A stretch of 64,000 bases of DNA from a virus (lineage: Duplodnaviria > Heunggongvirae > Uroviricota > Caudoviricetes): the IMG/VR virus record IMGVR_UViG_3300021138_000001; one strand, written 5' to 3'. Under the pieces are notes generated by a model, which did no database searches, had not been told where the DNA came from, and worked only from the letters and a program-made list of their open reading frames with translations. Of the stretch, positions 8,990 through 64,000 are shown one piece after another. Within the stretch, counting starts at the first letter, position 1, and each line of letters starts with the position of its first letter. Both the position numbers and the translations under genes were made by a program.

Positions 8990-9687
8990 ATGGCAACAAA
9001 TAATAAGCTATCTGCATATATTCTACTAGATCGTTCTAGTTCAATGGCTGGTGCTCGTTGGGAGAATGCAATTGGTTCTATCAATCAGTACGTTAAGTCT
9101 CTAAAGGAAGAAAGGTTTCTGCTGAAGTTACAGTAGCTACTTTTGATTCTAATTACGTTTATACTCCACGTCCTATGTACGTCGGTGGGGGCATTCAGAT
9201 GAATGCTGATGCTTTAACTCCTAAGGAAGTTGTAGACCCAAATTCATTTGACATTATTCGAGATAGTGTTACACTATCAAAGTTCAAGGATCTGAGTCCT
9301 ACAGAAACTAGCCCACGCGGTGGTACTCCTCTATACGACTCTACTGCAAAGCTAATTAATCTTGCGGAAGCAGTTGGTAACGAAAAGACTGTTATTATCA
9401 TCATGACGGATGGTGAAGAAAACTCTTCTAAGGCTTACACACTACAAGCTATTCGTGATCGTATTGTTACCTGTAAGGCTCGTAATTGGGAAGTTCTGTT
9501 CCTTGGTGCTGAGTTTAATGCCGATAATATCGCTACTCAATATGGGCTAAGTAAGGGTAAGGTTATTAACACTACTCTTGAGAATACCTCGCGCTCCATG
9601 GATTTCTACGCTAAGGCTTCAGCCAGTTATGCTGACTTTGGTACTGCTGTTGATACCATGGCAGTCAAGGCTGATCTAGCAAATTAA
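8990..9687 (+). pseudogene. von Willebrand factor A (vWA) domain protein interrupted by a -1 frameshift near 9108-9116 (GAAGAAAGG)
   Basis: Frame 2 (8990-9136) encodes MIDAS LLDRSSSMAG then stops; frame 1 continues VSAEVTVATFDS...IIIMTDGEEN (vWA core) to 9687. Confidence 0.55.
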
Positions 9688-9691
9688 TATC

Positions 9692-9699
9692 TATAAATA
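9692..9699 (+). promoter_or_regulatory. T4-type late promoter box TATAAATA upstream of tmRNA gene
   Basis: Exact TATAAATA. Confidence 0.35.
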
Positions 9700-10035
9700 G
9701 TTTTGTTCGTTGATACGGACTTAAAACCGGGGAAGACAGGGGTGCGATTCCCCTCGCCTCCACCAGTAAACACACGATAACAGGACGCTGGCTCTGTGAA
9801 GCGGGATATCGGGGTAGCTGCCGAGAAGACAGGGAGAGCATCGTGTGTTTTCTCATGGGGGCGTATAGTATCGATTCACGGCTAGTAGGAATGTGGAGAA
9901 CACGGTAAGAAACGACCGCCAATCAGTTCGATAACCTAAATGCAAACGAAAACTTTGTATCTCAAGAATTCGCTCTAGCAGCTTAATTCTTATGCGTATG
10001 GGCTCCACGTGGAAACAGAACGGGCCTACTTTTAT
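9700..10035 (+). ncRNA. ssrA: two-piece (circularly permuted) tmRNA, acceptor piece then excised hairpin then coding piece
   Basis: T-arm AGGGG-TGCGATT-CCCCT 9738-9754; acceptor 3' CGCCTCC + A + CCA 9755-9765; intervening hairpin AAACACACGAT (9768-9778)/ATCGTGTGTTT (9841-9851); coding piece 5' end GGGGGCGUAUAGUAUCGAUUCACGG 9857- (cf. canonical GGGGCUGAUUCUGGAUUCGACGGG) pairs 7/7 with acceptor 3' strand; tag ORF 9942-9986. Confidence 0.75.
9942..9986 (+). other. tmRNA tag reading frame GCA...TAA encoding ANENFVSQEFALAA*
   Basis: Resume codon GCA, 14 codons, C-terminal ALAA followed by TAA (cf. E. coli ANDENYALAA). Confidence 0.7.
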
Positions 10036-10403: not shown

Positions 10404-10736
10404 ATGAAGAAAAATAATATTTCTAATTTTAATGGAGAACTTGTCGCTTCTAATCAAATTTTACAGGTTATTAATGACAATTATTTGACACAACTTACTA
10501 TAAATAAAATTGTTGTTCTTCCGTTGCAAAAGCTGCAAGGCAACGTTGACAGTAAGACCAGTAAGGATGTAATTATACTCATTACTTCTGGTTCAGGATC
10601 AATGGAGGTAAATGGCAAGAGCGCACCCATCAATGCGGGTGAAATCATTAGTGTAAAGGCTTCCGAGTCATTTGTTATTATCAATGATGCGCTTGATGCT
10701 ATTTTGGAATTTGTTTCAATACTATCTACGAAATGA
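10404..10736 (+). CDS. hypothetical protein
   Basis: ORF track. Confidence 0.35.
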   Translation: MKKNNISNFNGELVASNQILQVINDNYLTQLTINKIVVLPLQKLQGNVDSKTSKDVIILITSGSGSMEVNGKSAPINAGEIISVKASESFVIINDALDAILEFVSILSTK

Positions 10737-10768
10737 ATTTGACTTCCTCCCTATAAAGGAGAAGCCAT

Positions 10769-12899: not shown

Positions 12900-12907
12900 T
12901 ATAAATA
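12900..12907 (+). promoter_or_regulatory. T4-type late promoter box TATAAATA
   Basis: Exact TATAAATA upstream of tRNA-like gene and gene 32. Confidence 0.35.
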
Positions 12908-12929: not shown

Positions 12930-13003
12930 GCGGCTTTAGTATACTGGTATTATAATCGCCTTCCAAGCCAAAGAAACGGGTTCGATTCCCGTAAGCCGCT
13001 CCA
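12930..13003 (+). tRNA. tRNA or tRNA-like gene with encoded CCA; canonical acceptor stem and T-arm, non-canonical D/anticodon region
   Basis: Acceptor GCGGCTT/AAGCCGC 7/7; T-arm ACGGG-TTCGATT-CCCGT; discriminator T then CCA; D-loop GG present, but I could not fold a 5-bp anticodon stem by eye. Confidence 0.5.
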
Positions 13004-23206: not shown

Positions 23207-24141
23207 TGAATAACTTTATGGGTAAAGATGGCTTTCATTGGTTCTTTGGGAAAGTTGTTGATAGATTTGATCCATTGATGCTTGGTCGTGTTCGGGTTCG
23301 TGTTTATGGTATTCATCCTGATGATGAAACTTTAGTTCCCAATGACCATCTGCCTTGGGCAATGCCTATTCAACCTATCAACTCGGCGGGCATCTTTGGT
23401 GTCGGCCATTCTCCTGTAGGACCGATTGAAGGAACGCAAGTATTTGGATTTTTTGCTGATGGTAAAGATTGTCAAATTCCCTTTATTCTTGGTACAGTAG
23501 CAACTGGTCTTGGGCATTTTGCATTGAATGTTATTTCTACAGCTTCTGATGCATTAAAAGCAGTAACAGATGCAACATCTCCTGTGCAGACCTTAGGACA
23601 ACTCTCTAAATCCTTTGTAGTAAAGGCTGGACCAATCGGTCAAAGACTTATGGCAGACCTAAGTCTTCACGATTATCAAGCTGCCGCTATTTTGGGTAAT
23701 GTTGCGCATGAATCTGGTGGAATGTTCTGTGATATTCGAGAAGGGGGTAGCCACGGTCCATGCTGGCCTATAGATACTAAATCAAAAGGTTATGGTTGGG
23801 TTCAGTGGACCAATAGTCGAATGAATGACTTTGTGCATTTTGTTAAGACGAACTTTAATGGTTATGATATTACACAAAATGCAGCAACGGATGATCATAA
23901 TTATTCGTTTCTATTATATGAATTAAAAAATACTCCTAGATATACTAAGAATCTTAAGGCTGCATCAACCATCGAATCTGCAACCGCAGCATTTATGAAT
24001 GATTTTGAAAAGCCTAAAGCGGAATACGCATTCCTTGATAGAAGAATTGGATATGCTAAGCAAGCATTAGCATCAATGAATGGTTCTGGACCACCAACCA
24101 GAGCAACAGGAAAGAATCTGGAAACAACTAAAAATGGCTAA
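23206..24141 (+). CDS. 5: gp5-like baseplate hub protein: N-terminal OB-fold plus phage tail lysozyme domain
   Basis: FFGKVVDRFDPLMLGRVRVRVYGIHPDDE (gp5 OB-fold N-terminus); YQAAAILGNVAHESGG (tail-lysozyme signature). Confidence 0.55.
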   Translation: MNNFMGKDGFHWFFGKVVDRFDPLMLGRVRVRVYGIHPDDETLVPNDHLPWAMPIQPINSAGIFGVGHSPVGPIEGTQVFGFFADGKDCQIPFILGTVATGLGHFALNVISTASDALKAVTDATSPVQTLGQLSKSFVVKAGPIGQRLMADLSLHDYQAAAILGNVAHESGGMFCDIREGGSHGPCWPIDTKSKGYGWVQWTNSRMNDFVHFVKTNFNGYDITQNAATDDHNYSFLLYELKNTPRYTKNLKAASTIESATAAFMNDFEKPKAEYAFLDRRIGYAKQALASMNGSGPPTRATGKNLETTKNG

Positions 24142-26113
24142 TACAACAAACACAATCCCAAATACCTCTATTGTTTCTGTAACTGATTTTATTAGTTCGG
24201 CCGTTGTTTCTAATGATCCAACATTAACTATAATAACTAGCGGGTTACTCTCTGCTACAGATGGTTCTGTTCAAGTAGACCCAGCATTATTAAATCTCAA
24301 TAATGGTATACCCGATACTTTTCTATCGCAATTCTATTCTGGTAATGCATCGGCAAACACTCTAACCTTAAATTATGACCAATTAAACAGTATAGATTCA
24401 GATCAACAAGTTGCTTCTACTGTAGTAGACCCAACAACAGTTCCTATTACGTCTACCCCATCTTCTCCTACATTGGCTAGAGCGGCTTCTAATGTTGTCA
24501 CATCTATTGCTGCAACACAACCTTCAGATATTTCTGTGACTCCGGTTGGTATAGAACCACCCCTTGCCTATAAAGGGCAATATCCATATGTGCATACTCA
24601 AAAGTCGGAGTCTGGTCATATTAAAGAAATAGATGATACGCCTGGAAATGAAAGATTATTTGATTATCACAAGTCCGGTACATATCAAGAAATTGCTGCT
24701 GATGGTCGTAGAGTAACTAAAGTAGTTGGTGATAACTATAGTATCGTTGTTCATGATGATCATGTTTACATCGAAGGTTCTCAGGACGTTTATGTAAAAG
24801 GAAATATAAACATCACATGTCTTAACGATGTTAATATTAATGTTGGGGGCAGATTAGAAATTAATGCAAAAGAAGATGTTCGTATTAGGGGTAGTGCAAT
24901 TTATCTAGAGGCATATGATGGAGACATCAATATGTATTCTTCAGGTAATACAAATATGCATAGTACACAAGACACAAATATTTTTTCTAATGCTAATGTT
25001 CAAGTACAATCAGCAGTAGGAAGCAACTTTACAGCACAATCTTTTGATGTTAAGACTACACAAGATGTGAATTTGTATTCTGGTGCTAATGTACAGATTC
25101 AATCTACTACAGATACTAACATTAAATCTGGTGCTGGAATCTTTTCATCTTCTACACAAGATACTAATATTAAATCTAGTGGAGCATTTGTCGTATCTGC
25201 TACGTCAGCTTCTTCAGTCAAGTCTAGCTCTACTGTAGCTTTCGATGGTTCTCACATTTCCTTAAATGAAGGAATTTCAATTACTGCTACTGATGCAAAT
25301 CCCGCAGCACAAGCAATTGGTGCTACAGATGCAAAAACTTCGGGTCTATCAAACCCACCAAGTAGAGAAGGAACTGTTCCTGCTGTTACAGATTCTATTA
25401 TTCAGGGAACCGATGATGACCAAGAAAACGCACAAGCGCAAATAAATGCGGCTGTGGCTTCTGGAAGAATTACTCAGGCTCAAGCTGATGCTTTAAAGAA
25501 TGAGCCTTCAACTACAGGACAAACTGATACTTCTCCTGCAGCCAATATTGTTCCAACTGGCACAACCGGCGGTATTGAAAATCTTCCAGATACATCTATT
25601 TCTGGCGATTTGAGGTTATCAAAGAATTATAGATTATCTGATCTTACTTATCCTGGTCCGGTATTTCCTTATGCGATTATGTCTCAAGTTGCTGGTGGTT
25701 CTTTAATGAGTAAAGCCAGACTCGCTGCAAATCTAACATTGCTTGCTCAAAATGTTCTAGAACCAATTAGTCAAAAATGGGGACCAATTCGGATCAATTC
25801 TGGATTAAGAACCGGCGCTAATATTGGTGCTGGTCAACATGGAACCGGACAAGCAGTAGATATTACATTTGGTGCAAGATCATCTGACTACAAAACCATG
25901 TACGAAATTGCTCAATGGATCAAAGATCATATTGCATTCGATCAATTAATTCTTGAATATGGCGCATCACAAATTTGGATTCATATATCATTTGCAAGTC
26001 CTGATAGCGGATGTAAGTTTAAGGCAAATAGAAAAATGATATTGACTTGTGCGAATGCTCCAACCGGAGACTATAAACCAGGACTTATTGAATTTGCCTG
26101 GAGTCCTAAGTAA
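24133..26113 (+). CDS. central spike protein: beta-helix repeats (gp5 C-domain-like) fused to C-terminal M15 (VanY/L-Ala-D-Glu) peptidase
   Basis: Repeats TQDTNI(F/K)S..NVQ(V/I)QS; SGLRTGANIGAGQHGTGQAVDI = M15 zinc-peptidase H..D motif; ATG overlaps upstream stop. Confidence 0.55.
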
Positions 26114-26361
26114 TGCCCGGAGTAACAAGAGACAATATTGATCATTGTGGAAGCCACTTAATTCTTGGTGGTGGGCAATTCACAGTTTCTTGTGAGGGGC
26201 AATTAATAACTGTTGTAAATGATCAGTTACAGTCTTGTACTGCTATAATGTCTACTGGTTCTTCTACAATATCAATTGCTGGTAAAGCTATATGTAGAGC
26301 CGGTGATACTGCAACAGATGGTACACATGCCACAGGAAGTTCGACGGTTTCTGCCACATAA
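26113..26361 (+). CDS. PAAR-repeat spike tip protein (gp5.4-like)
   Basis: 82 aa, Gly/Cys/His pattern, immediately after spike gene. Confidence 0.5.
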   Translation: MPGVTRDNIDHCGSHLILGGGQFTVSCEGQLITVVNDQLQSCTAIMSTGSSTISIAGKAICRAGDTATDGTHATGSSTVSAT

Positions 26362-28146: not shown

Positions 28147-28927
28147 AATGATTGATTTTGGTTCTGGCCCAGTTCCAGCACATCGACACTCTAATGGAGG
28201 TGGATGGGTTGCCGACACTGCTCTTGTCACCGCCTCCGCTTATATCTCTGGTAGTGCTTGTGTCTATGGCAATGCTCATGTCTCTGGCGATGCTAGAGTC
28301 TATGGCAATGCTAGAGTCTATGGCAATGCTAGAGTCTATGGCAATGCTAAAATCCATGGCGATGCTAATGTCTCTGACAATGCTTATGTCTCTGGCAATG
28401 CTTGTGTCTATGGCAATGCTCATGTCTATGGCGATGCTCATGTCTATGGCGATGCTTATGTCTCTGGCAATGCTCATGTCTCTGGCAATGCTAATGTCTA
28501 TGGCGATGCTAATGTCTCTGGTAGTGCTCGAGTCTATGGCGATGCTAAAATCCATGAGCATATGTGGGTATCATTCTCACATGTAACCACTGATCTCAGT
28601 ACTGATTTAGTGGCTTCACTGCGTACTCAATGCAATCTCATGTTTATGAGAGATGAAGTCATCTGCTTTAAACGTGTTAAAGCTGATCTAAGCTCTGAAT
28701 ACGATGATAACTTCAAGTACGTGATAGGAGAATGGGCCAAAGTCAAAGATCCGGATATGTCTAATAAGTCATGCGCACCTGGCCTCCACTTCTCTCATGC
28801 TACCTATTATGATGTAACACCTTCTAGCAAGACCCTGATATGCAAAGTTCTAAAAGATGACATCATTACTATTCAACAAGGCAAGATTCGAGCCAAGAAA
28901 GCTTTAGTGCTGGGAGTATGTGAGTAA
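28139..28927 (+). CDS. YGNAxV hexapeptide-repeat protein (paralog family member 1, ~45 tandem repeats, distinct C-terminal domain)
   Basis: Protein repeats VYGNA(H/R/K)V / VSGNAxV; underlying near-perfect 18-bp DNA repeats. Confidence 0.6.
   Translation: MSEMIDFGSGPVPAHRHSNGGGWVADTALVTASAYISGSACVYGNAHVSGDARVYGNARVYGNARVYGNAKIHGDANVSDNAYVSGNACVYGNAHVYGDAHVYGDAYVSGNAHVSGNANVYGDANVSGSARVYGDAKIHEHMWVSFSHVTTDLSTDLVASLRTQCNLMFMRDEVICFKRVKADLSSEYDDNFKYVIGEWAKVKDPDMSNKSCAPGLHFSHATYYDVTPSSKTLICKVLKDDIITIQQGKIRAKKALVLGVCE
28255..28550 (+). repeat. tandem 18-bp (6-codon) coding repeats gtctatggcaatgct(a/c)(a/g)(t/a)
   Basis: Visible near-identical 18-mers in tandem. Confidence 0.7.
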
Positions 28928-37339: not shown

Positions 37340-37525
37340 ATGGCTTTTATCGAAAACCCTATGAATGTCTATGGCAATGCTTATGTCTCTGGCCATGCTA
37401 ATGTCTCTGACAATGCTAATGTCTTTGGCGATGCTGTAGTCTCTGGCAATGCTGTAGTCTTTGCTCGCGGTACAGTCTTTGATGCTCCCCAACTATTCTC
37501 TTTTGATGATTCAGGAGTAATGTGA
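37340..37525 (+). CDS. YGNAxV hexapeptide-repeat protein, short paralog (starts MAFIEN)
   Basis: MAFIENPMNVYGNAYVSGHANVSDNANVFGDAVVSGNAVV; N-terminus matches MAYIEN of 43321 and 44001. Confidence 0.5.
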   Translation: MAFIENPMNVYGNAYVSGHANVSDNANVFGDAVVSGNAVVFARGTVFDAPQLFSFDDSGVM

Positions 37526-42492: not shown

Positions 42493-43131
42493 ATGATCCG
42501 CCTCTCTAAAGCTTCTAAAATGCCGGGTAAGTCGTGGTCATTACAGGCGCGGGAAACATGTCCCGGCTCTATTGATCCGGCGACTAAGACGCTATTGCCG
42601 GTTTGTGCGGGCTGCTATGCCACGCAAGGGAACTATGTTTTTCCTAATGTCAAAGCGCCGCGCGAAGAAAACCGCAAGGATTGGAAACGCGAAGACTGGG
42701 TTTCTGATATGGTTGCTGCTATCGCCAAAGAAAAGTTTTTTCGTTGGTTTGATAGTGGCGACGTGTATCATCCTGGTTTGGCTGAAAAGATTTACTATGT
42801 GATGGAACAAACGCCGCACGTTAGGCATTGGCTCCCTACTAAGTCTTACAATATCCCCAAAATTCGCTTTTGGCTGAATATGATGAAAGAATTGCCTAAT
42901 GTGGCGGTTCGCTTTTCTTCGCCTACGGTAGATGGTATGTTTAGCGCGGAACATGGTTCCTGCGTAGTGCCAAGTTTTGATAGTGACACGCAAGCTAATG
43001 CCGTTTGCGATGCTTATGAACGGGACGGTAAATGCGGCGATTGTCGCGTTTGTTGGGATAAAACGGTTGACGTTGTTGCGTATGTGGCGCATAGTAAGAA
43101 GCTGATTAAGCAATTGAAGGCTGCGGCATAA
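42493..43131 (+). CDS. Cys-rich hypothetical protein
   Basis: ORF; clusters CPGS...C.GC near N-terminus, CGDCRVC near C-terminus. Confidence 0.35.
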   Translation: MIRLSKASKMPGKSWSLQARETCPGSIDPATKTLLPVCAGCYATQGNYVFPNVKAPREENRKDWKREDWVSDMVAAIAKEKFFRWFDSGDVYHPGLAEKIYYVMEQTPHVRHWLPTKSYNIPKIRFWLNMMKELPNVAVRFSSPTVDGMFSAEHGSCVVPSFDSDTQANAVCDAYERDGKCGDCRVCWDKTVDVVAYVAHSKKLIKQLKAAA

Positions 43132-43132
43132 A

Positions 43133-43315
43133 ATGAAAAGCGTTAGCGAACGGTTTGAAGACTTTGTAAATAGCGGCGCGAAGGAACAATATCCTGATGA
43201 TAGGGAAAGGCAATATGCCTATTCATATGGATATATGAATAGTATTATCGAAATACTGTCTGTGCGAGTCCCCGGAGTAGCTGAATACCTCGAAAACTAT
43301 ATTAAGGAAAATTGA
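43133..43315 (+). CDS. hypothetical protein
   Basis: ORF track. Confidence 0.3.
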   Translation: MKSVSERFEDFVNSGAKEQYPDDRERQYAYSYGYMNSIIEILSVRVPGVAEYLENYIKEN

Positions 43316-43320
43316 TAGCT

Positions 43321-43806
43321 ATGGCTTATATTGAAAATTCTAACAAAGTCTCTGGCAATGCTAATGTCTATGGCGATGCTCTAGTCTATGGCGATGCTGT
43401 AGTCTCTGGCAATGCTAATGTCTTTGGCGATGCTAAGATCCATGGCGATGCTCATGTCTATGGCGATGCTCTAGTCTATGGCGATGCTGTAGTCTCTGGC
43501 AATGCTAATGTCTCTGGCAATGCTTTTGTCTCTGGTGAAGCGAATATTTCATCTAATGATGATTGGTTTAGCCTGATCTATAGTGGTAAGACTTTGACTG
43601 GATATCGCTCTCGCAATGCTGATGGTTATGAACTGAATATTGATGGTCTCGCGGTCACTATTGGTGATGTGGCTGATGATCTGACGCCCAATCAATTGAA
43701 TGCGATTGATAAGTGGTCTAAGCCTACAAAGTCTGAGATTGATATTAGGATTGAAGCCCTGAAGACTGAATTGGCTGCTTTGGAACAAGCTATTAAGGAT
43801 CGTTAA
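43321..43806 (+). CDS. YGNAxV hexapeptide-repeat protein, paralog 3 (MAYIEN start; conserved C-terminal domain EANISSNDDWFS..RSRNADGYE)
   Basis: Repeats VYGDA(L/V)V / VSGNANV; C-terminal domain shared with 44001..44324. Confidence 0.55.
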   Translation: MAYIENSNKVSGNANVYGDALVYGDAVVSGNANVFGDAKIHGDAHVYGDALVYGDAVVSGNANVSGNAFVSGEANISSNDDWFSLIYSGKTLTGYRSRNADGYELNIDGLAVTIGDVADDLTPNQLNAIDKWSKPTKSEIDIRIEALKTELAALEQAIKDR

Positions 43807-44000: not shown

Positions 44001-44324
44001 ATGGCTTATATTGAAAACGAGAATAAGGTCTATGGCAGTGCTTATGTCTCTGGCAATGCTAAGGTCTATGGCAATGCTAATGTCTATGGCAATGCTGTAG
44101 TCTCTGGCGATGCTAGTGTCTATGGTGAAGCGAATATTTCATCTAATGATGATTGGTTTTCTATTACTATTCAGAATAAGATCATTACTGCCTATAAGTC
44201 TCGTAATGCTGATGGTTACGAAATCAATATCAATGGAATCAATAAAACCCTGGATGAAGTGAAACAATACTTCGGTTCTATTCAATGTGAACTAATCGAA
44301 TCCTGGAATAAACAATTGAACTAA
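44001..44324 (+). CDS. YGNAxV hexapeptide-repeat protein, paralog 4 (MAYIEN start)
   Basis: VYGSAYVSGNAKVYGNANVYGNAVVSGDASVYGEANISSNDDWFS. Confidence 0.55.
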   Translation: MAYIENENKVYGSAYVSGNAKVYGNANVYGNAVVSGDASVYGEANISSNDDWFSITIQNKIITAYKSRNADGYEININGINKTLDEVKQYFGSIQCELIESWNKQLN

Positions 44325-45657: not shown

Positions 45658-45894
45658 ATGAATCGCCCTCTCTATACTATCGCCTCGGATATCCGCAAGG
45701 CTTGGCCCAAGGTTAACTTTGCAGCTAAACCTTACCTTGACGCAATGTCTTCTCTGAATACTATGCAAGATGACTATTATTGCGACTCTGCTAAGTCTGT
45801 TGTTCTCTATTTCCTTTCCAACGCTTCGACCTTTCGCGGCGAACAAGCAAAGTCGCTGAAGGATGAACTAAAGGCAATGCTTAAGAGCGCCTAA
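45658..45894 (+). CDS. hypothetical protein
   Basis: ORF track. Confidence 0.3.
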   Translation: MNRPLYTIASDIRKAWPKVNFAAKPYLDAMSSLNTMQDDYYCDSAKSVVLYFLSNASTFRGEQAKSLKDELKAMLKSA

Positions 45895-46149
45895 TACTTG
45901 AACCGGAGGGGATTAGACTTGATCTAATCCCCTCTATACTTTGGAGCAAATACAAATGGCCCGTTTGATTGTTGAATTTGCAGTATTGACGATTTTTTTG
46001 ATCGTTCTTACTTGCCTATATATGACCTATACCTAACTAGACTGTATAGAGCAAAGCAGATTAAGGTTAAATTTTCGCGATTTCCCCATTGTTCCCTAAC
46101 CCATTGAAATTGCAGAGAAAAATAATTTTTCGGAGCATGTATTGAAGGG

Positions 46150-46178
46150 TTGACACCAAGTATTGTTATTGATAAGGT
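46150..46178 (+). promoter_or_regulatory. sigma70-like promoter (TTGACA, 17 nt, TAAGGT) leading into GC-rich hairpin cluster
   Basis: Exact TTGACA 46150-46155. Confidence 0.4.
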
Positions 46179-46290
46179 GGCTTCGCCACCGGGGGATTCG
46201 CCCCCGGCCGGCGGGGACGGACTCCCCGGCGATCTTTGACATTGTGAACCCCTAACCAAGGCGCGCGGCATTCCGTTGCGCGCCTAATCC
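46175..46290 (+). other. cluster of four consecutive GC-rich stem-loops
   Basis: GGTGGC-TTC-GCCACC; GGGGG-ATTCG-CCCCC; CGGGGA-CGGA-CTCCCCG; GGCGCGC-GGCATTCCGTT-GCGCGCC; GC content far above the rest of the window. Confidence 0.5.
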
Positions 46291-46319
46291 TTCACATCAC
46301 ATCAAAAGGAACTAAACAA

Positions 46320-46580
46320 ATGTTCGCTTCTCTCAATATCGGTTACGGCGCTACCTTCGCCCTCTCGATCGCCGATGCCGCCAAGGTTATGGAAATACTC
46401 GGCAAGGCGAAGCGCATCGAGTCAACCTATGTCGGCGGCGAAGACTATCGCACGGTTACTTATGAAATCGAGCCGGCTAATATTGAAATGCGCGTGTTGA
46501 ACGGTGAAATCTACTCGAAAGAGCAAGTTGAACAATTCAAGGCGGAAGATAAGGCGCGAAAGGAACAAGAGCAAGCCTAG
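46320..46580 (+). CDS. GC-rich hypothetical protein
   Basis: ORF track; codon composition differs from surroundings. Confidence 0.35.
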   Translation: MFASLNIGYGATFALSIADAAKVMEILGKAKRIESTYVGGEDYRTVTYEIEPANIEMRVLNGEIYSKEQVEQFKAEDKARKEQEQA

Positions 46581-46592
46581 TCGAAAGCAATA

Positions 46593-46626
46593 CAGAGGCG
46601 GATTAAACCCCGCCTCTGTTCTTTTC
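46593..46626 (+). terminator. rho-independent terminator
   Basis: CAGAGGCGG-ATTAAACC-CCGCCTCTG then TTCTTTTC. Confidence 0.6.
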
Positions 46627-46649
46627 AATACAACAAAAGGTCAAAGCAA

Positions 46650-46835
46650 ATGCAACAAACGACGCTCGCCCAAAGCATTCGCCACGGTTTCTTTAGCGAA
46701 CGCGAGACTTTAAAAGACGCTATGCAGTACGCCTACAGTATTGCGCAAGCGTCGAATTCGCCTATTCATGTAATGACGGCAATACATGTCGTCATGAATA
46801 CTCTAGCTAATGAAATGGAGAAGCAAACGGCCTAG
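46650..46835 (+). CDS. GC-rich hypothetical protein
   Basis: ORF track. Confidence 0.35.
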   Translation: MQQTTLAQSIRHGFFSERETLKDAMQYAYSIAQASNSPIHVMTAIHVVMNTLANEMEKQTA

Positions 46836-46846
46836 TATCTGTCAAG

Positions 46847-46886
46847 TATAGAGCAAGTCTAGTTTGGCGATTAGACTTGCTCTATA
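46847..46886. other. 15-bp perfect hairpin TATAGAGCAAGTCTA-(10 nt)-TAGACTTGCTCTATA without U-tract
   Basis: Seen directly; followed by CTTCCGAAAAAAA. Confidence 0.5.
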
Positions 46887-46957
46887 CTTCCGAAAAAAAC
46901 AGTTCTATTTGGCTATATTGTATTGGGTTCCCATACGAGATGCTTCGAGCGGTTTAG

Positions 46958-47215
46958 TTTTTCCATTTTTCCTTTTTCTATGGGTCCCCCCCAGGAAAAT
47001 ATAGGATTTCAATTTTCCATTTTTCCTTTTTCTATGGGTCCCTTTCAGAAAAGTATAGGGTCCCCCCTTTTCGTATACGGGTCCCTTTCAGAAAAGTATA
47101 GGGTCCCCCCCCACCTTATATTGGGTCCCCTTACGGGTCCCTTTCAGAAAAGTATAGGGTCCCTTTGATCCGTTCTACGGGTCCCTTTGATCCGTTTCAC
47201 GGGTCCCTCTCTCAG
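46958..47215. repeat. array of at least 10 GGGTCCC-core repeats organised as 30-bp x2, 29-bp x3 and 18-bp x2 direct repeats
   Basis: ttttccatttttcctttttctatgggtccc at 46959 and 47013; gggtccctttcagaaaagtatagggtccc at 47036/47079/47135; gggtccctttgatccgtt at 47157/47179. Confidence 0.7.
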
Positions 47216-47223
47216 GGTTTTAC

Positions 47224-47231
47224 TATAAATA
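47224..47231 (+). promoter_or_regulatory. T4-type late promoter box TATAAATA upstream of gp25
   Basis: Exact TATAAATA ~35 nt upstream of 47266. Confidence 0.45.
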
Positions 47232-47265
47232 AATACAGATTTCCTTTTCTCATCGGAGAACTTTA

Positions 47266-47676
47266 TTGTCTGTTTCTGCATTACAAGCAAATACCATATA
47301 TTCTGATTTTAACACAAACTTTAATGTTCATCCCATTAAGAAAGACTTAACACGTTTTACTAATGAGGAAGCCGTTAAGCGTTCTATCAAGAATATCATA
47401 CAGACAAATTTTTATGAGCGACCTTTTCAGCCTATGTTTGGATGTAATATACGAGCATACCTATTTGAGCTTATTACACCTATTACACTACAGCTTATTA
47501 AAAAAGATGTAACCGCAGCAATCAATAACTATGAACCCAGAGCAAATATTTTGGATGTAATTGTTTCAGTTGCTCCAGATAATAATCAGATTGCCGTATC
47601 AGTTACATTTTCTATCATAAATAGTCTACAGCCAACTACAGTAAATGCTACTGTTGCACTGAACGGGGTTCGTTAA
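47266..47676 (+). CDS. 25: gp25-like baseplate wedge protein (GPW/gp25 lysozyme-like family)
   Basis: 136 aa; pattern FYERPFQPMFGCNIRAYLFE typical of gp25/GPW. Confidence 0.6.
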   Translation: MSVSALQANTIYSDFNTNFNVHPIKKDLTRFTNEEAVKRSIKNIIQTNFYERPFQPMFGCNIRAYLFELITPITLQLIKKDVTAAINNYEPRANILDVIVSVAPDNNQIAVSVTFSIINSLQPTTVNATVALNGVR

Positions 47677-49433
47677 TGTCATCAAATTCTGCTCTTGTCG
47701 TATCTTCTCTAGATTTCGATACAATAAAAAATAATTTAAAGACTTTTCTCAAATCTCAAAATCAATTTGCCGATTACGATTTTGATGGTTCAAATTTATC
47801 AGTACTGATTGATTTGCTTTCATATAATACCTATATGAATAACTTCTATACCAATATGGCAATCTCTGAATCATTTTTGGATTCTGCACAGATTATGGAT
47901 TCCGTGGTATCACGAGCCAAAGAGCTTAACTATACTCCCAGATCATACTCATCAGCAGTAGCCTATATCGATTTTACAATTCAAGCAAATGATAGTCCCT
48001 CTGTAATTGTAGTACCAAAGGGAACAGCTTTTAATGCTCGTCTTGATAATAACATCTATACCTTTACCACAGATCAGAGCGTCCTAGTATATGATCACAA
48101 TAATTACTCAGCAGCCAATGTGGCAATCTATGAAGGCGTATACGTAACAGAAAGCTTTACAGTAGATTCATCAGTAACCCAACCACACTACATTCTGAAT
48201 AATTCACAGATTGATACATCCTCTCTCTCCGTCACAATTCAAAATTCTCAATCAGATACAACTACTGTGAATTTTGCACAGGCAACATCAATGCTTGGTT
48301 ATAATTCTACATCAACAATCTACTTTGTGCAAGCCACAAACAATGGAAAATATGAATTAGTATTTGGTGATGGAAATGTCGGCAAGGCCCTACTAAACGG
48401 TAATATAATTCAAGCAACATATAGAGTTGCTTCTGGATCAGATGCTACTAAGGCGATTAACTTTTCACCAGCATCTAGTATTGCTGGATATAGTACCGTA
48501 ACTGTTACTAGCAATACAGCAGCATTTGGTGGTGCAAATTCTGAATCAATTTCTTCTATCAAGTATAATGCACCTCGCCATTATCAAACACAAGATAGAG
48601 CTATTATTCCAGAAGATTATAAAACTATTCTTAAGGCACATTATCCAGACATTCGTGCTTTAAACGTATATGGTGGAGAAAAGATTTATCCTCCTCAGTT
48701 TGGTAAAGTATTCATCTCTATTGATTTTAGTAGTTTTGTAGGAATTCCTAATGTAATTGCTGCAGACGTAGTATCATTCATTAAAACTAAAATGCCTGTA
48801 GAAATGAATCCTGTTATTGTATCTCCAGATTATCTTTATGTTTCAGTTGTTGCTACAGCAGAATATAATATTAATATATCAGCATTAAGTCCGTCTGATA
48901 TTAAAGCAGAAATGATTTCTGCTATCAATGGATATAACAATGCAAGCCTAAACAATTTTGATATTACATTTAGACACAGTAAGTTGGCTGCAACAATTGA
49001 TAACGCAGATACATCAATTGTAAGTTCAAACCTAACAACTAATATGATTAAAAGAATTGTTCCTGCATTAAATACTACAGAACTATATACCATTAATTAT
49101 AACAATCCAATTGTTCCAAAAACTATGTACTCTTCACTTCTGACCTATAACAACATATCATCAATGTTGCAGGATCAAAATGGATTGGGTTATTTAGACC
49201 TTATTACAGTTTCGTCCGGGGGAAATATAACAACGGTACTTAGCTCAATTGGTACAATTGATTATTCATCAGGAATAGTTAATTTATCTTTACCAGCACT
49301 TTCAGATTATGTAGGAAATTACATCAGTCTTTATGTACAACCAACAATTTTGGATTTTGCTGCAATTAATAATACAGTTTTATTAATCGATCCTGCCGAT
49401 ATCAACGTATCAGTTACCGCAGTAAGAGCATAA
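47676..49433 (+). CDS. baseplate wedge protein (gp6/J-like)
   Basis: 585-aa ORF coupled directly after gp25-like gene. Confidence 0.45.
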   Translation: MSSNSALVVSSLDFDTIKNNLKTFLKSQNQFADYDFDGSNLSVLIDLLSYNTYMNNFYTNMAISESFLDSAQIMDSVVSRAKELNYTPRSYSSAVAYIDFTIQANDSPSVIVVPKGTAFNARLDNNIYTFTTDQSVLVYDHNNYSAANVAIYEGVYVTESFTVDSSVTQPHYILNNSQIDTSSLSVTIQNSQSDTTTVNFAQATSMLGYNSTSTIYFVQATNNGKYELVFGDGNVGKALLNGNIIQATYRVASGSDATKAINFSPASSIAGYSTVTVTSNTAAFGGANSESISSIKYNAPRHYQTQDRAIIPEDYKTILKAHYPDIRALNVYGGEKIYPPQFGKVFISIDFSSFVGIPNVIAADVVSFIKTKMPVEMNPVIVSPDYLYVSVVATAEYNINISALSPSDIKAEMISAINGYNNASLNNFDITFRHSKLAATIDNADTSIVSSNLTTNMIKRIVPALNTTELYTINYNNPIVPKTMYSSLLTYNNISSMLQDQNGLGYLDLITVSSGGNITTVLSSIGTIDYSSGIVNLSLPALSDYVGNYISLYVQPTILDFAAINNTVLLIDPADINVSVTAVRA

Positions 49434-62287: not shown

Positions 62288-64000
62288 ATGGCAATAAATA
62301 CAGCTAATATTCAACCACAATTTGACACTTTTGCTGGTTGGATCACAAAAACAAATATTATAGCATATGATATGTCAACTATTGTAGTAACAACAGATAC
62401 TACAACAAATGGGGCTATTACTACAGGCAATGCTTATGTAAATGGTATTTTTAGTGCTAATACCTTCACTGTATTAAATGATATACGAGGTGGTAATGGA
62501 TCAACTCCAGCGACCTTAACCATTTCGTCAAATGTAGCAATGTCAAATGCCTTGGGTATTTCTATCGGAAATTCTTCAATCAATACGACGATTTCTTCCT
62601 CCAATTTAAATACAACCTCAGTATTTGCAAATACAGCATCAATAATTTCTACTTTAACAGTAGGATCAAATGTTGGTTTAACTACAACTACAGTATTCGT
62701 AGGCAATTCTACAACCAACTCATTTATTAATTCTACGGCATTTTCATCAAATTCGTTTATTGCAAATTCAGCATTAACAGTAGGATCAAATGTTGGTTTA
62801 ACTACAACTACAGTATTCGTAGGCAATTCCACAACAAATACAATTATCAATTCAACTTCAGTTACTACTAATGCTGTAGTTGCTAATGCTTCTGTGAGTG
62901 TCGGCGCTAATGTTGGTTTAACTCCATCTACAATATTTGTAGGTAATGCCACAATTAATACTATTGTAAATGCTACATCATTCTCTGGCACAGCCAATAA
63001 TACAACAAACTTTGCTGGATTATCTTCTTCGACCTGGGCTGGATATATTACAGGTAATGCTGCTAGTGCATACTCTAATGCTGTTACTAATGCTGCATTT
63101 ATGGCTGGTCAAGCTTATTCTAATGCTGTCGCCAATGCTGCTGCCATTTACCAAACTACTGCAGGATTAGCCGCCAACGTATTAACATTAGCCTCAAACT
63201 CAACAACATATCATGGAAATTCTTCTGGTACATTAGCAAATGTTGCATCTTGGATTACCGGTAATGCTGCTAGTGCAGCAGCAACAGCATATTCTAATGC
63301 GATAGCTATTGCAGCAAATGCAAGCAATATAACAAATGGAACAATTCCTACAGCAAGATTACCAGCAACAATTAATGCAACAGCCCAACTTAACGTTGGC
63401 GGAAATGTAAATATTAACACCACAGGAATCAGCATTTCAACTGGAGGATCTATTACACTAATAGATCCGTCAAACGTTTCCAATTTTACAACCATTAGTG
63501 CTGGTGGTCTAACCTTACCGGCTGGAAGTAATAGTGCAGTTACATCATTTAATGGTAGAGCAGGAATTGTAGTATTAACTTCATCTGATATTGTGGGTAA
63601 TACTACAGTCGGTTTAAATTACACACCGTTATCGGCAAACTCTTCTGGCACAATTAATGGATCATTAACTCTAACAGGAAGCGATCTTCTAGCCAGAAGT
63701 GTTGTTGCTAATGGGCAATGTATTGTGGGAAATACCACAACAAATACAACAATTACAGCCACTTTATTCAGTTTAGGAAATAGTACAGCTAATGTAACTA
63801 TTAACTCTACAGCATTTTCTGGCACATCCAACAACTCATTAAATCTTGGCGGATCTTCTTTATCAACTATACAAAGCCAAATTACTGGAAACTCAGCCAC
63901 TGCTTATTCTAACGCAACATCTTATGCTGACACAAAATCTTCTGCGGCTTATTCTAACGCAACATCTTATGCTGACACAAAATCTTCTGCGGCTTATTCT
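62288..64000 (+). CDS. repetitive tail-fibre protein, 3'-truncated at window end
   Basis: Open frame from ATG 62288 to end of window with no stop; Asn/Ser/Thr/Ala-rich; internal DNA repeats. Confidence 0.5.
   Translation, partial: MAINTANIQPQFDTFAGWITKTNIIAYDMSTIVVTTDTTTNGAITTGNAYVNGIFSANTFTVLNDIRGGNGSTPATLTISSNVAMSNALGISIGNSSINTTISSSNLNTTSVFANTASIISTLTVGSNVGLTTTTVFVGNSTTNSFINSTAFSSNSFIANSALTVGSNVGLTTTTVFVGNSTTNTIINSTSVTTNAVVANASVSVGANVGLTPSTIFVGNATINTIVNATSFSGTANNTTNFAGLSSSTWAGYITGNAASAYSNAVTNAAFMAGQAYSNAVANAAAIYQTTAGLAANVLTLASNSTTYHGNSSGTLANVASWITGNAASAAATAYSNAIAIAANASNITNGTIPTARLPATINATAQLNVGGNVNINTTGISISTGGSITLIDPSNVSNFTTISAGGLTLPAGSNSAVTSFNGRAGIVVLTSSDIVGNTTVGLNYTPLSANSSGTINGSLTLTGSDLLARSVVANGQCIVGNTTTNTTITATLFSLGNSTANVTINSTAFSGTSNNSLNLGGSSLSTIQSQITGNSATAYSNATSYADTKSSAAYSNATSYADTKSSAAYS
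62651..62835 (+). repeat. ~64-bp intragenic direct repeat (2 copies, 121 bp apart)
   Basis: ttaacagtaggatcaaatgttggtttaactacaactacagtattcgtaggcaattc at 62651 and 62772. Confidence 0.7.
63902..64000 (+). repeat. perfect 45-bp tandem repeat (at least 2.2 copies, continues past window) encoding AYSNATSYADTKSSA
   Basis: gcttattctaacgcaacatcttatgctgacacaaaatcttctgcg repeated. Confidence 0.8.

Follow-up and report, generated by a model that had tools for sequence, protein, structure and literature searches.

Why should a T4-like phage carry a dense array of one short motif, GGGTCCC, directly in front of its baseplate-wedge genes? The array lies in a 64-kb stretch of DNA (the window) from a T4-like freshwater myovirus, which is represented by a metagenomic contig of ~156 kb. 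Homologues of gp32, gp59, gp33, gp5 and gp53 and of a PAAR protein are also encoded in the window, and the best named relative, Caulobacter phage Cr30, is just 43% identical in gp6. An earlier sequence-only reading had offered three functions for the array: an origin of replication, a packaging site, or a set of binding sites for a late transcription regulator.

Make-up and confinement of the array

Read directly from the window, GGGTCCC occurs ten times without a mismatch between 46982 and 47207, always on the + strand. The boxes start at 46982, 47036, 47058, 47079, 47101, 47123, 47135, 47157, 47179 and 47201, which gives start-to-start spacings of 54, 22, 21, 22, 22, 12, 22, 22 and 22 nt, and TRF finds a period of 22. 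The earlier count of about 10 copies within 240 bp is therefore accurate: there are 10 exact copies in 226 bp, on one strand. Dinucleotide-preserving shuffles of the window yield a mean of 1.43 and a maximum of 4 copies against the 10 observed, while variants of the box with one mismatch are found in the window at chance level (52 observed, 46.8 expected). A degenerate eleventh box, GGGTTCCC, lies upstream on the same strand (46925–46932), in flanking sequence that matches that of the box at 47123 with 85% identity (repeat family D4).

The boxes are embedded in longer repeats. A 47-nt repeat is present in two copies 54 nt apart (46959–47067, + strand), each of which opens with the T-rich tract TTTTCCATTTTTCCTTTTTC and continues with TATGGGTCCC. 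Double-box units of 35 nt, TA(T/C)GGGTCCCTTTCAGAAAAGTATAGGGTCCC, start at 47033, 47076 and 47132; the three are nearly identical and span 47033–47166 on the + strand. Two 22-nt units, GGGTCCCTTTGATCCGTT(CT/TC)AC, occupy 47157–47200 on the same strand, each with a short inverted repeat, ACGGGTC/GATCCGT. Counted as families, the 35-nt repeat has five copies and the 47-nt and 22-nt repeats one pair each. The nested direct repeats described earlier are thus present, but their lengths, given as 18–30 bp, run longer, with a 35-nt family and a 47-nt pair beside the 22-nt pair. The near-identical 35-nt units indicate recent internal duplication of the array, and the ten boxes look like recent growth, by such duplication, of an ancestral element of 3–5 boxes. 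At least three types of repeat unit can be told apart, and all that they have in common is GGGTCCC plus a few T. Because the core alone is common to these types, the comparison suggests a short recognition element, analogous to a DnaA box. The identical 24–48 nt repeats and unique spacers of a CRISPR are absent, the core being 7 nt long and the spacers themselves repeated, and the sole Rfam CRISPR hit is at chance level (E = 4.2). As a separate observation, AAGTATAG is more frequent in the window than expected (8 copies against 3.3), and within the array it reappears as AAGTATAGGGTCCC.

Outside the array, GGGTCCC does not occur in the rest of the window. Some 12 kb of flanking genome (L436 and L438) extends the view to ~76 kb, overlapping contigs such as L072 included, and contributes no further GGGTCCC and one GGGACCC. 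The sequence-only reading had called for a search of the whole genome and had named uniform scatter of the motif as the outcome that would speak against a special site; within the ~76 kb examined, of a genome of ~156 kb, the motif is confined to the array, and since the overlapping contigs add no copies there is no such scatter. The flank 5' of the window start (L436, 1–6506) encodes sugar/LPS-type functions (an epimerase, a glycosyltransferase, a GHMP kinase and a SIS-domain protein) as well as a WYL_2 protein and a glutaredoxin.

The array does not stem from faulty assembly, because two assemblies that disagree on the copy number of tandem repeats near 43.5 kb and at 63.9 kb have exactly the same array. 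Two further assemblies (L067 and L068) break within it. The L067 break falls at a 32-nt internal repeat and is explained by the length of that repeat, which exceeds the k-mer of 31 that we take to underlie this Logan assembly. The 156,302-bp contig (k141_174784, ENA ERZ27271863) reads straight through the array, as does the window sequence.

The other tandem repeats of the window are of different kinds. Repeats of 18 bp with the consensus GTCTATGGCAATGCTAAT occur at 28261–28548, 37364–37463, 43345–43535 and 44024–44125, and no fewer than three of these sites fall within ORFs. Matches to the YdcK beta-solenoid repeat were obtained for the ORFs at 43312–43806 and 44001–44324, and the former also matches bactofilin, weakly. 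Compared with contig k141_174784 (L066), the window has a 90-bp indel within ~43.2–43.8 kb, a region that includes the repeat array at 43.3–43.5 kb. A 45-bp tandem repeat at 63902–64000, of which the window apparently has at least one copy more than the same contig, lies inside an ORF called in L438 as a 1074-aa Peptidase_S74 protein.

Setting between early-type genes and the baseplate operon

The gene downstream of the array had been read as baseplate-wedge gp25, and this identification holds. The ORF at 47266–47676 (+ strand, TTG start) matches PHROG 261 at 4e-45 and Pfam GPW_gp25, and it heads an operon gp25-gp6-gp7-gp8. A T4-type late-promoter box, TATAAATA, lies at 47224–47231 on the + strand, 34 nt before the gp25 TTG and thus at the distance of such boxes, ~30–45 nt 5' of a late gene start. 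The array had been said to end 10 bp before this box; in fact 16 nt separate the box from the end of the last core at 47207. The window contains eight copies of TATAAATA, seven of them on the + strand and six just 5' of a gene, tmRNA or tRNA, and the motif appears to behave as a late promoter in this phage. The flanks of the copy at 47224 resemble those of the other five promoter-like sites in the window, none of which has a GGGTCCC box, and such boxes form no part of the definition of the T4-type late-promoter family. Among these sites, one lies at 9692, just 5' of a two-piece (permuted) tmRNA gene of alpha-proteobacterial type (9646–10030), and another at 12900, just 5' of a tRNA-Gly(TCC) at 12930–13003. 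The type of the tmRNA hints at an alphaproteobacterial host.

Upstream lies a block of small ORFs of early type, ~21 kb long (26360–46835, + strand), between the PAAR gene and gp25. Most of these ORFs are without annotation. Rightward transcription of the block is predicted from sigma70-type promoters of the form TTGACA-N17-TAnnnT, often with terminator hairpins 5' of them. On the far side of the block are a gp5-like gene (24080–26110) and the PAAR-like ORF (26113–26358), both assigned from family hits. Four of the closest sampled relatives have the gp5-like gene directly 5' of gp25-gp6, with a PAAR-like ORF between them in two cases, and four other relatives have a non-coding tRNA/tmRNA-like stretch at this place instead. 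With the early-type block on its left and gp25 on its right, the array marks the right-hand junction of this inserted block with the late baseplate operon.

The last ORF of the block (46650–46835, + strand, 61 aa) has no family hit, and directly 3' of it stands a perfect 18-bp inverted repeat with a 10-nt loop (46844–46889). Together with the hairpin at 45906–45940 it makes up a small family, with GATTAGACTTG in common and both members ending in CTCTATACTT. The last three small ORFs (45658–46835) have a GC3 of 0.49–0.61, against 0.15–0.35 for most other ORFs measured. Among them is an apparently non-coding, GC-rich stretch of ~380 nt (45941–46319) with the stacked GC hairpins GGTGGCTTCGCCACC, GGGGGATTCGCCCCC and GGCGCGC..GCGCGCC, for which Rfam returned no match better than E = 0.2. 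This stretch and the three ORFs look like recently acquired DNA beside the array. Inside the array itself, a scan for promoters and terminators gave neither a sigma70 promoter nor a + strand terminator.

Conservation and distribution

A second strain from another sample (L440), whose gp25 is 97% identical, carries the array at the same place, with eight exact boxes and one GGGTTCCC at spacings of 22, 12, 23, 22, 12, 22, 22 and 22 nt. The comparison separates boxes from spacers clearly: only 1 of 63 box positions has changed, against 18 of 84 positions in spacers of equal length (Fisher p = 2.8e-4). Several spacers have been exchanged or altered in length: TTTCAGAAAAGTATA, for example, has given way to CTTTCTATAATATAC, and two spacers have changed in length, one of them from 14 to 5 nt. 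Units have been reshuffled between the two strains, while the promoter and leader are nearly unaltered. The sameness of the boxes within one array could partly reflect concerted evolution, through unequal recombination anchored on the boxes, and not selection.

Pattern scans of viral and metagenomic contigs also recovered homologous arrays in distant T4-like phages (L060/L084, L081, L208 and L221/L224/L225). L060 has six genes in common with the window, at 35–52% amino-acid identity, and the other bearers are its syntenic relatives. These arrays have 4–5 boxes, often as pairs 21–22 bp apart, and the boxes invariably share the coding strand of the operon 3' of them, though the lattice is looser and spacings of 39, 52, 74 and 107 are also seen. 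The operon that follows is non-structural, encoding a small cysteine-rich protein and a DUF932 protein (by Pfam hit of the L060 gene). Other sequence is held in common with the window as well: the block CCATTTTTCC, which in L060 lies 5' of the array, GGGTCCCC..TTTTCGTAT(A/T)CGGGTCCC, and TATAGGGTCCC. L060 further has TATAAATA 17 nt past a box. Each of the six array-bearing loci also has a related box, GGGACTCC, 5' of the array and in its orientation; at array-free loci this related box is found only as isolated single copies, in 5 of 75. In L060, L081 and L208 it lies in the 17-bp spacer of a conserved promoter-like element, TTGTAA-N17-GATACT, which would be an operator-like position, and the array begins ~150 nt 3' of that element.

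The distribution is sporadic. At the DUF932 locus 75 of 80 relatives are without the array, at gp25 it is absent from all relatives at 53–69% identity, and among 44 relatives there is no array of another motif 5' of gp25 either. The array is dispensable, given this sporadic distribution. Clusters of other short motifs occur a few kb 5' of the DUF932 gene in relatives of L060 (L215 2045–2667, L239 2587–2674, L229 2821–3007, L218 1623–1660 and L238 1385–1423); their motifs are TGACCAAC(TAT), AGCAATAG, ACCAACT, and tandem GGTTTCACGAA and AAGTGCGAAAA. Such clusters may be general in this group, each phage having a motif of its own.

How common are GGGTCCC clusters outside the T4-like phages? A wide scan for GGGTCCCCTTTT followed by a second box returned 67 contigs in 22 sequence families, 14 of them with at least three boxes; with the central base swapped as a control, the same scan returned 20 contigs in nine families, four with at least three boxes. 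The enrichment is only ~2.4- to 3.5-fold, and because it is so modest we claim no universal factor. The idea that GGGTCCC arrays are specially widespread in phages was dropped on these numbers, nine families in the matched control against 22. The 14 viral contig families have 3–10 co-oriented boxes per cluster at a GC content of 32% to 67%; the flanks CTTTT and ATAT/ATAAATA recur, and several clusters lie just 5' of operons. A triple-box scan of bacterial genomes gave, among the matches listed, only hits in high-GC organisms; judging from their 21-bp spacing, we take these hits to be coding repeats. A literature search for the motif brought up primer sequences only and no description of a GGGTCCC array in phages. 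A different conserved non-coding element came up in marine viral contigs (L290, L293–L298, L300 and about 25 more; GC about 36–38%). It reads GGGACCC ... GTTTCACGTGAAAC ... TTTAGGGTCCCCTTTT, then the hairpin AAAGCGCGCGAAGCGCGC, then GGGTGGGTCCCGCCCAC, and it is intergenic, just 5' of a terminase-large-subunit-like gene and oriented opposite to that gene.

Competing explanations and a proposed docking site

A core kept through the turnover of its spacers, in one orientation and on a lattice of 22 and 12 bp, is the signature of a protein-binding array. In this generic form the binding-site suggestion of the sequence-only reading is borne out: core and 22/12-bp spacing persist in the 97% strain with its rewritten spacers, and the core persists in relatives with 35–52% protein identity. 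Its more specific suggestion of a late transcription regulator is not specifically supported: the arrays of the relatives precede a non-structural operon, and the other five promoter-like TATAAATA sites of the window do without a box. A phased protein-binding array would also fit the sequence better than either a classical iteron origin or a pac site.

An origin, the main rival to a role in transcription, would have an iteron-like initiator site, where an initiator of the host or from another part of the phage genome oligomerises on the phased boxes and opens the T-rich tract beside them, or would work through an R-loop formed by a transcript that enters the array, as T4 oriF/oriG do; we regard this as rather unlikely. 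The 22-bp period, the co-orientation, the two copies of TTTTCCATTTTTCCTTTTTC that flank the first boxes and the large palindrome resemble iteron origins, at which Rep-type initiators such as lambda O, RK2 TrfA and R6K pi bind. A true Rep_3 (PF01051/PF21205) replicon even has iterons of 22 bp that open with GGGTCCC (L087, Ga0256404_1012261; 9064–9174 and 10506–10768): six perfect copies of GGGTCCCTTCGTTGATTTTATG flank the rep gene on one side and five looser ones on the other. In these iterons, however, all 22 bp are conserved, just as classical Rep iterons are conserved over their whole 17–22 bp and lie beside a rep gene, whereas the units of the window array agree in 7 of 22 bp. (By its ORF translations, this replicon sits beside Suf-like iron-sulfur cluster assembly genes and sugar-metabolism-like genes, in an unrelated organism.) Other phages carry DnaA-box arrays with 11/22 spacing in similar positions, and several dispensable origins in T4-type phages would fit the sporadic distribution; but among the 79 window ORFs no initiator family was found, and the DnaA box TT(A/G)TCCACA is absent from the array, its matches elsewhere in the window being scattered without a cluster. 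Given the core-only conservation, the lack of a Rep or helix-turn-helix family among these ORFs and the lack of a DnaA-box cluster, a classical iteron origin is not supported, and the origin option of the earlier reading is possible but weak. In its proposed check by GC skew, the cumulative skew has a maximum, not a minimum, at the array (~46 kb), which is the sign of a terminus. The skew also flips at the third codon positions of the very low-GC baseplate genes, and because it is confounded by their codon composition we do not use it as evidence. The nearest T4 precedent is oriE, in the baseplate region from gene 5 to gene 6, with evenly spaced 12-nt iterons and similar ones in syntenic regions of close relatives (PMC3016281). 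Even there a role in replication has not been demonstrated, and that of the iterons "remains ill defined" (PMC3016281). The two share evenly spaced direct repeats in a T4-type genome and a baseplate gene neighbourhood, but oriE has no sequence similarity to the window array, its repeats are of 12 nt and the oriE point lies inside the coding region of gene 5, whereas the window array is non-coding and 5' of gp25.

The remaining explanations differ in what the repeats are for. As an RNA-level element, the array would be a transcribed leader whose GGGUCCC repeats serve as protein sites, as a processing target or as a C-rich loading region for Rho. In every T4-like example the boxes do share the coding strand of the genes 3' of them, the arrays of L060, L081 and L208 follow a conserved promoter-like element at ~150 nt, and the + strand of the array region is pyrimidine-rich (GC skew -0.17 over 47001–48000). 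Yet the predicted folding is only marginally more favourable than in shuffles, with z = -2.1 for the + strand and -0.6 for the - strand. Identical direct repeats could form a duplex only across a U-U mismatch, and the GGGACCC/GGGUCCC pairs that selection for hairpins would favour do not occur. Rfam gives no match in or near the array at gathering or permissive thresholds, there is no + strand intrinsic terminator, and no promoter is evident in the window between the upstream hairpin and the array. Because of the weak folding, the pairing by U-U mismatch only and the empty Rfam search, a role as RNA is unlikely. The array could also be a functionless by-product, a short sequence expanded by slippage or unequal recombination at a recombination-prone module junction. 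The near-identical 35-nt and 47-nt internal duplicates, the reshuffling of units between strains, the absence from most relatives and the position at the edge of an inserted, compositionally odd block all agree with recent expansion of this kind, to which we nonetheless assign a low probability: the core is kept while spacers diverge, phages with 35–52% identity in their common proteins retain it at a different locus with its orientation unchanged, and other tandem repeats vary between two assemblies in which the array does not. A packaging recognition (pac) site or genome terminus, the second function in the earlier reading, is very improbable. Arrays of short repeats do flank the termini of T7-type phages, two assemblies end within the array, and an unrelated contig (L348) has a GGGTCCC cluster just 5' of terS-terL-like genes; but T4-type phages package by headful, with no unique pac site, terminase genes are absent for about 20 kb in both directions, long contigs (the 156,302-bp contig and the window) run through the array, and the L067 end is accounted for by the 32-nt repeat, although the L068 start is not.

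We therefore return to the docking of a protein on the DNA, which we favour while holding it tentatively: the array may be a cis-acting site for a putative sequence-specific DNA-binding protein, one that likely controls transcription at the early/late junction. This protein would recognise the asymmetric 7-bp box and bind head to tail on a lattice of ~11 bp, which accommodates the 22- and 12-bp spacings, so that a multi-protomer complex would be built over about 225 bp. The array occupies a long stretch between genes, where a transcription unit begins, and its boxes are always co-oriented with the downstream operon. Control of transcription across the junction is suggested by position: the early genes read toward the array, the late promoter follows it at a distance of 16 nt, and the centre of the last box falls close to -33 relative to the predicted late start. 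Most plausibly the complex would act as a roadblock or insulator that stops read-through from the early genes; instead or in addition, it might modulate the adjacent late promoter.

The array would work like a phased binding-site array and yet be neither a DnaA-box cluster, nor a set of iterons, nor one of stoperators, because the defining features that we tested were not all found. The strongest architectural parallel is with the DnaA-box arrays of other environmental phages (TTATCCACA; L403, L405, L412, L421 and L426–L430), which are likewise co-oriented, intergenic, 5' of an operon and variable in their spacers, with a core of 7–9 bp repeated 4–7 times or more at spacings of 11, 12 and 22 bp; the motif, however, is a different one. 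The stoperators of cluster A mycobacteriophages (sites for L5 gp71) are short asymmetric sites at which the bound repressor blocks elongating RNA polymerase. Their orientation follows transcription, as does that of GGGTCCC, and by analogy the same mechanism may insulate the late operon here; but stoperators are single sites dispersed in temperate phages, whereas the GGGTCCC sites form a single cluster, and their phage is lytic and T4-like. The promoter-early stem-loop (PeSL) cassettes of T4-type phages, reportedly described by Arbiol et al. in 2010, are again repeated intergenic regulatory sequences at module boundaries in plastic regions, and PeSL-like units of a terminator hairpin plus a TTGACA promoter do occur in the window. 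The GGGTCCC array differs from them in lacking a TTGACA promoter or a strong stem-loop and in being tandem at a single site.

The sequence-only reading had also asked for a protein of matching DNA-binding specificity, and here the search came back empty: 25 of the 26 Pfam families listed for the 79 window ORFs include no Rep_3, other initiator or helix-turn-helix family, and precomputed Pfam hits for 37–58 kb likewise contain no initiator family. A gene of the GP88 family (PF17338/DUF7227; 42493–43131), whose product carries conserved Cys clusters, lies within a few kb of GGGTCCC clusters in four lineages. We ruled it out as the cognate binder, since boxes are found at only 3 of 80 GP88 loci; its confident AlphaFold model, moreover, shows an enzyme-like alpha/beta fold for which the PDB offers no significant match. 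Of 80 phage contigs (L356–L435), roughly 33 have the GP88 gene 0.3–1.6 kb 3' of a short-motif array, and many of these arrays consist of co-oriented DnaA boxes at 11/22-bp spacing. The "Gp88" of ICP1 (Odn), an iteron-directed nuclease (PMC8263062), is alike in name only, having a T5orf172 domain and no link to Pfam GP88.

A bolder variant, to which we give only a slim chance, would make GGGTCCC a mobile cis-element of unrelated environmental phages, bound by a protein that polymerises head to tail and, in T4-like phages, couples DNA metabolism to the neighbouring operon. Polymerisation on the ~11-bp lattice would resemble that of DnaA on its box arrays, and the complex would create the entry point for this coupling. 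Such an entry point might take the form of a local origin or of a nick at a specific site; a clamp-loading site is a third option, and it would act as a fixed enhancer for late transcription dependent on gp45, gp55 and gp33.

On the prevailing view, T4-type phages need no sequence-specific DNA-binding regulators for the timing of their late genes, and apart from the oriE repeats we know of no iteron-like repeats in T4. An apparently selected, helix-phased box at the early/late boundary, and before another operon elsewhere, points to an unrecognised site-specific factor in a large and environmentally abundant group of phages. If the docking site is an insulator, or a fixed origin or enhancer, it would help explain how a block of early genes could be inserted into the structural module with late timing undisturbed.
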